From Candidatus Cloacimonadales bacterium (GTDB lineage Bacteria > Cloacimonadota > Cloacimonadia > Cloacimonadales > JAFGVF01), in assembly GCA_963667035.1 (NCBI GenBank), contig OY762964.1, forward strand, positions 608,001 through 672,000: a stretch of 64,000 nt of DNA, written 5' to 3'. The first letter of the stretch is position 1, and every line of letters begins with the position of its first letter. Positions 5,203 to 56,345 of the stretch are shown here, piece by piece. The notes beneath the pieces were generated by a model. That model worked only from the letters and a program-made list of their open reading frames with translations. It ran no database searches and was not told the origin of the DNA. Made by a program: the position numbers and the translations under genes.

Positions 5203-5392
5203 ATCATTTTAGATCCTAACTGTTTTCTCACATTCCATACTCAACCAACGCACTGCGTTTGCACTGTGCAGCCACTATTGAGGCACTGTGCACGCACTGA
5301 AACACCGGGTTGGCAGTGCCTTCACAGTGGGATCACAGTGCGAAAAGTGTGCTTTAGTAATTCGTTTAAACAATGTGAAGTAATAATTAATA
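5203..5392 (+). repeat. Dispersed 11-bp-phased CACTG/CAGTG element, copy 1
   Basis: CACT(G/A) at 5251, 5262, 5273, 5284, 5295; CAGTG at 5314, 5325, 5336; homologous to the reverse complement of 15250-15378 and 41313-41506. Confidence 0.9.
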
Positions 5393-5577
5393 GTACGATT
5401 CATCTTTATAAACGAATCAATTACTTGCTTCAAAAGGATAGAATGATGATAATTCAGCTTTGTTTATTTTTATTGATAATTATGATAGCACTATGAATAC
5501 CGCATTTAATCGCTAATCAGAACTGTATAATTCAGATATTTAGAAAGGAAAAACAAAAGAGATATTGACAAGAATCA

Positions 5578-15181: not shown

Positions 15182-15249
15182 GATTAAATTCAATTTTTAT
15201 TTAAAGATCATATTCTGCTCTTCTTCATTGCATCCATCAATAATGCCGT

Positions 15250-15378
15250 AGTTTCCCACTGTTTTTCCACTGTGCGGGTACTGTCAACCCGGTGTTTCAG
15301 TGGGTGGATAGTGCATTAGCAGTGCCTGCACAGTGCAAAAACAGTGCGTTGGTAGGACCTGCAATGTGAGAAAACAGT
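15250..15378 (-). repeat. Dispersed 11-bp-phased CACTG/CAGTG element, copy 2 (inverted relative to copy 1)
   Basis: (C/T)ACTG at 15257, 15268, 15279; (C/T)AGTG at 15298, 15309, 15320, 15331, 15342; shared CCCGGTGTTTCAGTG core. Confidence 0.9.
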
Positions 15379-15531
15379 TGATGATAAGTATTTGATGTAA
15401 GTTACTGAAAATGCACTGAGTAAGTAGATTGTTTGAAATGGAAATAACTCTCTGCAAGTCAAAACTCATTTTTCTGATATATACAGTATAATTTGTAAAT
15501 AAGGTGAATGTCAAAGTAGTTTTATGAATGA

Positions 15532-33427: not shown

Positions 33428-35090
33428 CAGACTGTTGACAAAAACATTCTAATTTACATGGATATATTGTTGAAAGTCATTTTTCTTCATTTTAACTGAG
33501 CCCAAACCTAAACATGCGAGATTTAGCTCTATTTTCGTGTAAATTGGAGTTGAAAATCATGTAATTGATGATAAATTTTGCTATTAATTTCCCTAATTTA
33601 CCTTTGAAAAGGTATTTTACGAGTTTCTTGATATTTTGCACGATAGCTGTTAGATAAGCTTGTTCTCGAACTCGCTCTATTCCTCGATATTTTGCATATC
33701 GGTAGCCATGAAGTTGCTTTGCATTGGCAAAGCTTCTCTCAATGGTTTCTTTTCTCCTCTTGTATATCTCTTTCCCACATAATGTTAACCTATTCTTGTG
33801 GATTATCTCTTTGCTCTCTTCCCAGACATGACGAGTGATTACTTTTTGAGAAGACTTACTTTCTGTACATTTACTTAGCATTGGACAATTCTTGCATTCA
33901 CTAGGATTCGACTTGTATTCTTTATAGCCATCACGGCTCGTTGTTCTATAATTTAACTCTTTATTACATGGACAAATGTAAACATCCTTCCGGGAATTAT
34001 ATGTAAATTTGTTCTTTTTAAATAGACCTTTCTTACCTCCCTGTCTTTTGTAGCCAAGGACTCCCATAATATTCATATCTACCAGTTGCTTACAAATGTT
34101 AATTGTATCATATCCTGAATCAAGCCCTACTGCCTGAACATTAAAACCATAAACCTTTTGTTGGAACTGTAACCTGTCAATATAGCAGGTGCTATCATTT
34201 ACATTGCCGGGAGTAATGTGAACATCGGTTATATAGTTCGTTTTATGGTCGACTGTCCTATGATCTAAGTAGAAGAAGCCTTGAGGCTTTCTATCACGGG
34301 TCATAAAACCACTATCGGGATCTGTTGTGCTAGACTTGATATTTTTTACTTTAGGTGATGCTCCTCCTTTAAGATTGTTATCCTTAGGAGGTAAAGGTTT
34401 CTTACCATGAGCCTTCCGATCTTCATCAACGCTTGTGTTAAGATCTTCCAAGTAACTCTTGGAGGATACCTCAACTTCAATATCCTCGAATTTACCTTTA
34501 TTAGCATTTGCCTTTAGATGGGTTGAGTCGCTATAAAGTATCTTCCCATCAACTAATCCATGTTTAATGCCTAACTTCACTATATCTATAAAAATCTCTT
34601 CGAATACGCTGCTATCATTAAATCGCCTTCTACGATTTTGACTGAAGACTGAGTGATGAGGTACTTTATCAGTTAGTCCAAAGCCTAAGAACCAACGATA
34701 AGCCACATTGACCTCAATCTCTTTGACCAATTGTCTTTCCGAGCGAATACCGAATAGATAGCCAATAAAAAGCATTTTGAAAAGAGTAATAGGATGAATT
34801 GGAGGACGACCGGTAGTAGAACAATACAAATGCGCTGTTCTATCTAAAATGAATGAAAAATCTATTACGCTATCGATTTTCCTTAGTATGTGATCTACCG
34901 GTACTAAATCATCTATTATTACAAACTCCATTTGGGACTGTGTGTCAGAAACTTTTTTAAGCATAACCACCTCTAATTATGATGGTTTAAGTATAATCTA
35001 AGGGGGTTTTTGTCAATGATTGATATTCTTATTTTAAGCTAAAAAAAGACAAAGCTATGAAATCTTACTCATAGCTTTGTCAACAGTCTG
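33428..35090 (-). mobile_element. IS1182-family insertion sequence (1663 bp)
   Basis: 15-bp terminal inverted repeats CAGACTGTTGACAAA (33428-33442) and TTTGTCAACAGTCTG (35076-35090), flanked by 24-bp direct repeats. Confidence 0.92.
33492..34970 (-). CDS. IS1182 family DDE transposase
   Basis: LVPVDHILRKID, GRP, GIRSERQL, DSTHLKANA, STTDPDSG, DSGY, CPC...C..C....C, RKETIERSFA. Confidence 0.93.
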   Translation of the reverse strand: MVMLKKVSDTQSQMEFVIIDDLVPVDHILRKIDSVIDFSFILDRTAHLYCSTTGRPPIHPITLFKMLFIGYLFGIRSERQLVKEIEVNVAYRWFLGFGLTDKVPHHSVFSQNRRRRFNDSSVFEEIFIDIVKLGIKHGLVDGKILYSDSTHLKANANKGKFEDIEVEVSSKSYLEDLNTSVDEDRKAHGKKPLPPKDNNLKGGASPKVKNIKSSTTDPDSGFMTRDRKPQGFFYLDHRTVDHKTNYITDVHITPGNVNDSTCYIDRLQFQQKVYGFNVQAVGLDSGYDTINICKQLVDMNIMGVLGYKRQGGKKGLFKKNKFTYNSRKDVYICPCNKELNYRTTSRDGYKEYKSNPSECKNCPMLSKCTESKSSQKVITRHVWEESKEIIHKNRLTLCGKEIYKRRKETIERSFANAKQLHGYRYAKYRGIERVREQAYLTAIVQNIKKLVKYLFKGKLGKLIAKFIINYMIFNSNLHENRAKSRMFRFGLS

Positions 35091-40937: not shown

Positions 40938-41312
40938 ATTATTTTTAATTTATTGAATTATGAAGATACGTGCAAGAGTAGCTTAAGACCGATTATATGA
41001 TGTGATTAGCATGAGATGAATAAATTTTATCTCTTATCATCAAATTGAGTAACAACCTGCAGAACGTTCTAATTAAATTTGGTTAAAATGAATATTGTTT
41101 AATAAGTACACTGAGTTATATCACTTTCAATTGCCGGATTCTGAAGAACAATTCGAATTGATAATCGTAAACAATAAACAAAATTTTGAATTAAGGTAAA
41201 TTTAGGAGGGTATTCCTAAAAGTGTGTAAATTAATTTATCGCAAATCATATTTTTCTACCCATTTGAAGCAAGTAATTTACTCATTTATAATGATAACCC
41301 GGTTCGGATGTT

Positions 41313-41506
41313 TATTATTAATTATTACATAACATTGTTTAAAAGAATTAATAAAGCACTATTTTCCCACTGTGTTTCCACTGTGAAGGTACTGCTACCC
41401 CGGTGTTTCAGTGAGTGGATAGTGCGTTCACAGTGGAATCACAGTGCAAACACAGTGCGTTGGTTGAGTATGGAGTGTGAGAGAACAGTGAGGGGTCTAA
41501 AATGAC
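41313..41506 (-). repeat. Dispersed 11-bp-phased CACTG/CAGTG element, copy 3
   Basis: YACTR at 41357, 41368, 41379, 41390; YAGTG at 41409, 41420, 41431, 41442, 41453; aligns with copy 1 over about 190 bp. Confidence 0.9.
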
Positions 41507-55859: not shown

Positions 55860-56345
55860 ACTTTGACCTCCCTAGGGTGGATACTTTTAAGGGTGACTCG
55901 CCAATTGAATGAACATATCATGAACCTTCTACGCCCCTTCTGCAATACTGTTAAAGACATAAGAATTTCTATGGTGAAAGTTATCCACACGATGTGGACA
56001 ACTTTGGCGTTCGCCAAGGAGGGTCCAAGGAGGCTCCTTGGTGGATCCAATCCGGTTCCAATGTCTTTAGAAGTCGCCCTAAAGGATGGTAGAAGGATGA
56101 TAATAGTGGGTGATAATAGGATAATAGCAAGATTTTTGAGGTATAAATGCACTACAATTGTACTGCAACTCCCCTGAGTTGCTGTGACGACGCAGTCGGC
56201 AACTTCCATAGACGGATGCAAAAGAGCACAATTCTGTCTTTAGATCTGTATTACACAGTTTGTATATACTAATATACTGACACGATCAAATTCCTAATCA
56301 GAGTTCTTTGAACTATGTGCAAGTGAGGGTACTTGCACTACATAT
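55860..56345. other. GC-richer, highly self-complementary non-coding segment (candidate structured RNA or origin-like site)
   Basis: Nested stems 55925-55932/56089-56096 and 55952-55960/56061-56069, several internal hairpins, DnaA boxes at 55981-55989 and 55993-56001. Confidence 0.45.

Follow-up and report, generated by a model that had tools for sequence, protein, structure and literature searches.

What kind of element is formed by the intergenic arrays of CACTG-type pentamers, phased at 11 bp in two inverted arms, that recur in this stretch of DNA (64,000 nucleotides; hereafter, the window), and do they stand alone in their genome? An original prediction, made from the window's letters, had described three copies and had proposed either a protein-loading array or a non-autonomous mobile element. 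The nearest clusters of its proteins identify the host as a Cloacimonadota bacterium. Its 3.10-Mb single-contig genome (the source genome, G000) was compared with that of a congener (G001) and with those of other relatives, among them G014 from a different taxonomic family.

Architecture of the window arrays

All three predicted copies are present. The phased pattern matched without a mismatch at 5262-5340 on the plus strand and at 15257-15335 and 41368-41446 on the minus strand, and it matched none of 100 shuffled controls. The three do not make up the whole set, however, since a fourth 11-bp-phased array, of another family (G), had been missed. The features of the window are as follows.

5247 to 5355, plus strand: CACTG-family array copy 1, with pentamers at 5251, 5262, 5273, 5284, and 5295, the dyad at 5301, and pentamers at 5303, 5314, 5325, and 5336
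5204 to 5443, plus strand: region over which copy 1 resembles copy 3, its nearest relative (81%, element positions -40 to +199)
15242 to 15350, minus strand: CACTG-family array copy 2, between convergent EPSP-synthase and amino-acid-kinase genes
15397 to 15418, minus strand: conserved left-end motif of copy 2, starting 66 bp before the core
41353 to 41461, minus strand: CACTG-family array copy 3, upstream of an Rrf2-family gene
41254 to 41504, minus strand: region over which copy 3 resembles copy 1 (positions -41 to +210)
55981 to 56131, plus strand: family G array with CCAAGGAG units (profile match at 56013-56131)
55981 to 55989: DnaA-box-like 9-mer preceding the family G array

The conserved left-end motif was not seen at copy 1. 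The arrangement of copies 1 and 2 is no assembly artefact, because short-read contigs from the same sample cross both with zero differences; short-read joints between these two copies are accounted for by other genomic copies and were not used. A small protein encoded over copy 1 (a 100-residue open reading frame) was discarded as a candidate, since a search among proteins 55-175 residues long found no homologue.

The core is an imperfect inverted repeat of ∼109 bp, in which CA(C/G)TG pentamers start at element positions 7, 18, 29, 40, 51, 59, 70, 81, and 92. Its dyad lies at position 57, and the central three bases are AAA in 21 copies, TTT in 8, and other in 7. While the 11-bp phase had been read correctly, the arms hold five and four units rather than five and three to four, and the reported 19-bp offset, which is real as the step from position 51 to position 70, masks the ninth unit at 59, the true step being 8 bp. 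The 36 copies that we found in the source genome align without gaps over a 100-bp core. In that alignment, the pentamer columns are 94% conserved and the linker columns 75%, so that phase is kept while linkers vary, as had been claimed; the linkers are less conserved than the pentamers, but they are not free to vary.

The conserved property is unit identity and spacing on double-stranded DNA

As an imperfect palindrome, the core folds as RNA at approximately -46 kcal/mol, which would suit a structured RNA or a REPIN-like single-stranded DNA hairpin moved by a RAYT or IS200 transposase. Such a hairpin would be expected to show in the pairing between arms. Across the 36 copies, however, we counted 1208 Watson-Crick arm pairs versus 1243 ± 9 for swapped arms, that is, fewer than in the swapped set, and arm-swapped chimeras fold as stably as the real copies. 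In the congener, the count was 832 versus 829 ± 2, a slight and unconvincing excess. A conserved RNA hairpin is thus unlikely, because the arms do not covary, and on the arm-swap results from both genomes an RNA or single-stranded DNA hairpin was rejected. Rfam gave no match at gathering score in the window. The phased architecture of the original prediction stands, with gapless phasing, no Rfam match, and no arm covariation, and the conserved property is the identity and the spacing of the units on double-stranded DNA.

Three of the 36 copies have a Y1 transposase gene at a distance of 0.8-1.5 kb, and a RAYT was considered as the cognate gene; it was set aside, as those genes have repeats of their own. 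The source genome carries five RAYT-type Y1 genes (L014, L015, L018, L019, and 2952203), each with its own, different flanking palindromic repeats, as well as six IS200-like genes or fragments.

The CACTG family is multicopy and turns over between congeners

A profile built from the window copies converges on 36 copies in the source genome (78% identity) instead of the three first reported, and the congener holds 68, of which the 28 examined are 93% identical. The family is present in all three congeners and in none of 37 other relatives, and an exact-pattern scan of a species-level genome collection returned 78 stretches, all in two Cloacimonadota records. A gene start lies on at least one side of 35 of the 36 source copies. 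In many copies, including copy 2, a left-end motif sits 66 bp before the core, and a search for this motif at up to 3 mismatches gave 21 matches, 15 of them at CACTG-family sites. In the 28 congener copies, the element has a sharp left boundary, whereas its right side is ragged and tapers off. At these congener loci (L080-L107), the left boundary is adjoined at a constant distance by members of several other repeat families, whose outer limit is often a second left-end motif, 150-200 bp farther out.

The gap between the EPSP-synthase and amino-acid-kinase genes, which holds copy 2, measures 449 bp in the source genome versus 54 bp, without an array, in the congener. Of the 28 congener copies checked, three have syntenic flanks in the source genome, where the gap is array-free in all three; orthologous sites are therefore found empty in both directions. 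No target duplication or clean insertion boundary was seen at the three empty sites, compared across ∼81% protein identity between the congeners. In the empty-site comparisons, extra DNA flanks the array on both sides, which speaks against a mobile element.

Recently copied units in the source genome are of variable length (224-467 bp), share 90-94% identity, and occupy unrelated loci; some bring a second array family along. The ancestry of a copy's left extension is uncoupled from that of its right extension (Mantel rho 0.08, P 0.12; nearest neighbor shared in 5/35). CACTG copies are mosaics that combine left and right halves of different origin, a pattern that crossovers within the array would produce. 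Local spread was rejected, sequence distance being independent of genomic distance, and no replichore bias was evident (20/36 copies on the leading strand). Family territories are loose, with 27/36 CACTG copies within 0.28-1.66 Mb of the source genome and families B, C, and F commoner elsewhere; same-family neighbors number 24 against 18.5 expected (P 0.10). The gene-linked array L019 (source genome 851307-852630) has, compared with the congener loci L061 and L143, the opposite orientation relative to both flanking genes, and those two genes are separated at arrays in the congener. This is an in-place inversion combined with recombination at the array.

The source genome holds at least ten phased-array families

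A lag-11 autocorrelation scan of the source genome marked 106 intergenic regions as strong, versus 0-9 at lags 7-10 and 12-16. These regions, with their inverted phased arms, fall into at least 10 families of distinct sequence, CACTG included, whose profiles give 154 matches at 136 sites, 18 matches having been merged within 1 kb into composite sites. Eight weak arrays, retained by eye from 13 candidates (five were dropped), bring the count to 144; the main spacing statistics below rest on the 136-site set, with none of the 13 included.

Family G arrays open with an inverted pair of DnaA-box-like 9-mers. Ten of the 24 perfect intergenic DnaA boxes in the source genome lie at G sites, and a degenerate version occurs at thirteen CACTG-family sites, so that DnaA binding or titration at arrays is possible. 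Four perfect boxes at the GC-skew minimum (G000:C1:2569070-2569198) probably mark oriC; the skew is weak and ragged, consistent with heavy shuffling. Further intergenic periodic repeats were seen at lags of 8-9 in G014 (L169-L178) and at lag 14 in G013 (L267-L276).

Array families are paired with paralogs of a 150-residue protein

No cognate gene had been visible from the window. Elsewhere in the source genome, however, the CACTG copy at 851846 lies 232 bp from a gene for a 150-residue protein that has 11 paralogs there, and the congener's orthologue of this gene (91% identical) again has a CACTG array upstream. Nine of the 11 source paralogs have an upstream array (of families A, B, D, E, F, G, I twice, and one minor family); a first pass had scored 6/11 against a background of 165/2228 ORF starts. 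Seven families each have a copy upstream of their own paralog or paralogs, families F, G, and I keep theirs in the congener, and same-family genes group in the tree (A, 2/2; F, 3/3; I, 3/3). Family C has 20 copies in the source genome but no cognate gene there, which speaks against a mobile array; its gene is present in the congener.

When the genes of both genomes were taken together, those outside one clade had an array in 24/24 cases (one weak), versus 1/9 (weak) inside it. The array-less clade, comprising 779887 and 2266667 of the source genome and seven congener genes, is well supported and differs in its predicted β-hairpin region; it constitutes a natural negative control for binding. 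The downstream lag-11 score was at most 8 in all 33 genes, so that the arrays lie upstream only. The gene occurs in 96/151 genomes of the phylum, at 1-24 copies each, and among 28 loci from other genomes a lag-11 score of at least 7 was found upstream in 10 and downstream in none, the unit sequences being different again. An 11-mer followed by a TATAAT-like hexamer occurs four times in the source genome (780215, 785520, 852123, and 1193977), each time upstream of a 150-residue protein gene, and is likely a shared promoter.

The model of the protein (pLDDT 95) has a small β-sheet followed by helices, and residues 1-105 are basic. Lys2, Gly14, Arg33, and Tyr72 are conserved at 95-99% in 134 sequences, in which neither a conserved His nor an acidic triad was found. 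Structure comparison of the model recovered neither a transposase nor a recombinase fold, the best score (Z 3.9) reflecting ribbon-helix-helix-like helices only; like the missing catalytic residues, this weighs against a mobile array. The structural matches, to TraM, CopA, Arc, PutA, omega, and SvtR (Z 3.0-3.9 over 43-72 residues), fall below the level that the search tool calls meaningful. The model shows no DDE fold or motif, and the family has no Y1_Tnp match, the Y1 genes of the genome being separate. Searches gave no Pfam family above curated cut-offs, no NCBIfam family, a best E value of 0.09 against PDB sequences, and no known family by Foldseek against PDB and viral structures; such blanks do not prove the fold new. 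The N terminus may resemble DUF6266; this family (PF19781) was found in 0/21 and 0/6 Cloacimonadota genomes in searches whose control was silent, and it is absent among the Pfam families listed for the 134 members. Close-relative searches with one paralog found no phage or plasmid carriers.

A second gene, of ∼196 residues, adjoins 3/11 of the 150-residue protein genes in the source genome, and all three source copies and all seven congener copies lie within 7 kb of such a gene. The structural model of its product is similar to winged-helix domains of the OmpR/PhoB type (Z 8.3, rmsd 2.6, 93 aligned residues with BaeR), which bind 10-11-bp direct repeats. No copy of this second gene was found beside the CACTG-linked one.

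Unrelated array families are evenly spaced as one population

Taken singly, the families are mostly not regular along the source chromosome (gap CV 0.53-1.47; family A, 0.95; D alone is nominally so, P 0.04). When all families are pooled, the gap CV of the 136 sites is 0.47 versus 0.91 for random draws from the 366 intergenic regions of at least 300 bp, with none of 5000 simulations reaching the observed value, and the over-dispersion holds against all five null pools (CV 0.90-0.96). Three gaps are shorter than 5 kb, versus 24 expected, and six are shorter than 10 kb, versus 42 expected; long gaps are depleted as well, the largest being 61 kb versus ∼120 kb expected. Control sets were not regular, neither the pooled RAYT-flanking repeats (CV 0.86) nor IS copies (CV 0.91). 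The eight weak arrays lie 5-20 kb from known sites. This pooled over-dispersion of unrelated array families is new here.

In other genomes, we analyzed samples amounting to 5-12% of each genome, four of them located on or close to gene copies or arrays that were already known. A 400-kb sample of the congener holds 34 sites (CV 0.56, P 0.001; minimum gap ∼4 kb), and a 200-kb sample of G014 holds 13 sites of three interleaved families with a CV of 0.27 (0/10000 simulations), 11 of the 12 gaps lying between 11 and 17 kb (∼14-kb spacing). In G014, a missed array was predicted in a double-length gap and was then found; the other double gap was empty at the threshold used. The G013 sample was borderline (8 sites, two of which may be other repeats; CV 0.42, P 0.03), and the G045 sample was not regular (7 sites, CV 0.66, P 0.34), with a smallest gap of 13 kb (P 0.02). 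The 200-kb sample of G004, a genome from the same taxonomic family that carries one copy of the gene, held no arrays.

Simulated insertion with a probability rising as the square of the distance fits the source genome (KS P ∼0.9). A strict 10-kb minimum also survives the test (P 0.16), whereas linear or 6-8-kb limits are rejected. Three observations count against the exclusion of new arrivals by resident mobile arrays: (i) the 18 merges within 1 kb, as composite sites break strict immunity; (ii) the minimum gaps of ∼4 kb in the congener versus 11 kb in G014, where a fixed-range mechanism predicts one scale; and (iii) the irregular G045 sample, together with the borderline one from G013.

Arrays mark breaks in gene order

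In 400 kb of the congener, synteny breaks fell at 30/35 array-holding gaps between orthologues versus 28/189 others, a count in which some breaks are gene-calling artefacts. Among gaps of at least 300 bp, breaks occurred in 29/34 with arrays versus 12/29 without, and a strict test on directly adjacent orthologues with gaps of at least 100 bp gave 9/11 versus 7/30 (P 0.001). The arrays are thus associated with breaks in gene order, for which ordinary homologous recombination between copies would suffice. That long array-free gaps are often broken too (the same 12/29) speaks against mobile arrays.

Other mobile sequences were seen in the same surroundings. All eight ends of truncated remnants, which we take to be IS3-like, lie within 1 kb of an array; such remnants flank source genome arrays at 432714, 734677, 1092113, 1141544, 1382812, 2767542, and 2993838, and another sequence that resembles an IS end adjoins the family B arrays. 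RAYT-flanking repeats gather at arrays (e.g., 13/21), versus 3/27 copies of a DDE element of the window. The latter, which encodes a DDE_Tnp_1_6/DUF772 transposase (33492-34970, minus strand) and is presumably IS1182-like, occupies 27 sites in the genome, and one copy sits within a terminator-like hairpin, which has been duplicated. No IS91-type Y2 transposase was found in a search whose control was silent. A single reverse transcriptase domain occurs in an 865-residue open frame (G000:C1:386942-387523), to which no link from the arrays was made.

Discussion

We give about an even chance to the arrays being mobile, with a cross-family exclusion that resembles target immunity. In such a scheme, the array would be a non-autonomous, self-spreading DNA element, on whose two inverted double-stranded arms a cognate protein would load cooperatively, one unit per helical turn, and the protein-array complex would be the substrate for copying to new intergenic sites. 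Copying may be performed by the 150-residue protein itself, whose invariant Tyr72, together with Arg33 and Lys2, is a candidate strand-transfer center, or alternatively by an enzyme recruited from the host or from a transposon. An array already occupied would suppress arrivals of any family over ∼5-25 kb, as in Mu cis-immunity, and later crossovers within arrays would shuffle the chromosome in array-bounded blocks, with the spacing left intact. Both options of the original prediction, the protein-loading array and the non-autonomous mobile element, fit this scheme, the protein binding being what we infer.

Among known systems, REP/REPIN elements come close. They are described (PMC2817692, PMC3116915) as having many intergenic palindromic copies, one coevolving RAYT gene per family, several families per genome, and lineage-specific turnover, and the arrays resemble them in being intergenic and palindromic, in having many copies per family and several families per genome, in gene-repeat coevolution, and in lineage-specific turnover. 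The differences are that (i) the array gene is not an HUH/Y1 transposase, as it has no conserved His; (ii) the array lies upstream only, whereas RAYT genes have inverted copies on both sides; (iii) the arms are 11-bp-phased arrays with no hairpin covariation; and (iv) array spacing is non-random at the 10-kb scale. The array system therefore keeps the one-gene-per-family logic of REPIN/RAYT, while departing from it on three defining tests.

The original prediction had also invoked parC of plasmid R1 (PMC2241845). There, a single site carries two sets of direct repeats that flank a promoter, and the operon also encodes an ATPase. The likeness to parC/ParR, so described, lies in two sets of approximately five 11-bp units, a gene beside the array, and plausible cooperative loading, and possibly in the weak ribbon-helix-helix-like helices of the 150-residue model. 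In contrast, the arms here are inverted and abutting, and each family has tens of chromosomal copies. No ATPase gene adjoins the eight source genes for the 150-residue protein whose neighbors were listed. With 36 to 68 dispersed copies and inverted rather than direct arms, a parC-like centromere is a poor fit.

Mu cis-immunity is reported to be strongest around 5 kb and to decay over 5-25 kb, and the immunity of Mu, Tn7, and Tn3 to be self-specific and to use the transposase, with an ATPase also in Mu and Tn7 (PMC7350765). A graded exclusion over ∼5-25 kb fits the array gaps, whereas the putative array exclusion spans unrelated sequence families. An IS-derived MITE would have terminal inverted repeats that match a cognate IS, and a target duplication; the array element has one sharp and one ragged end.

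The sites of matS/MatP, parS/ParB, SlmA, and Noc are short, single-sequence, conserved, and confined to chromosome regions. The arrays share with these the character of dispersed, putative protein-binding sites in non-random chromosomal positions, but they are 110-200 bp long, fall into many families, turn over between congeners, and cover the whole chromosome. No description of the array system or of its pooled even spacing was found in the literature outside subscription journals and supplements.

The strongest alternative to mobile arrays with exclusion, which we consider unlikely although it retains appreciable weight, is that host chromosome architecture sets the spacing, with arrays as anchors or barriers of 10-25-kb loops or domains, selection filling long domains, and families being interchangeable. 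Regularity that emerges only with families pooled favors this alternative, as do the depletion of long gaps, the scaling of spacing with density between genomes, the missing G014 array found where it was expected, and the positions of the eight weak arrays. However, the system is dispensable or patchy, as the array-free G004 sample and the incomplete distribution of the gene indicate; the fast turnover of paralogs and families, the empty sites, and the mosaic copies look selfish; and the graded-exclusion model yields the gap distribution without selection. The two readings, mobile arrays and host architecture, are not mutually exclusive.

It is improbable that the spacing arose by loss, through random landing followed by recombination between close pairs that deletes the intervening DNA wherever no needed gene lies in it, with composites as scars and the 150-residue protein regulating through its own array. 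Deletion of this kind would remove short gaps, composite multi-family sites do exist, truncated IS remnants abut arrays, and crossovers inside arrays are evident. The excluded families, however, have no alignable sequence, and homologous recombination cannot pair mutually excluding families, because they share none; moreover, the shifted exponential that loss predicts is rejected (KS P 0.009), and the near-constant gaps of G014 are left unexplained. A REPIN-like hairpin or structured RNA is a very remote prospect, already largely refuted by the missing covariation, and REP spacing in P. fluorescens is reported to show no departure from random above 200 bp (PMC3116915).

The dispersed repeats of bacteria are, as a rule, regarded as separate families placed at random on the kilobase scale, as stated for the REPs of P. 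fluorescens (PMC3116915). Here, unrelated repeat families act as one spaced population that marks most adjacent gene-order breaks, and the pooled spacing and the breaks therefore point to a shared cross-family long-range exclusion or to a repeat-based chromosome architecture. The approximately ten natural protein-array pairs within one genome make up a specificity series for a small protein without a recognised fold. More broadly, and at somewhat less than an even chance, Cloacimonadota may possess a chromosome lattice, in which diversifying small proteins and their own 11-bp-phased families tile the chromosome every 10-25 kb by cross-family interference, the lattice points serving as domain anchors and as block-shuffling joints. 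Such a lattice, if true, would be a bacterial counterpart of crossover interference.
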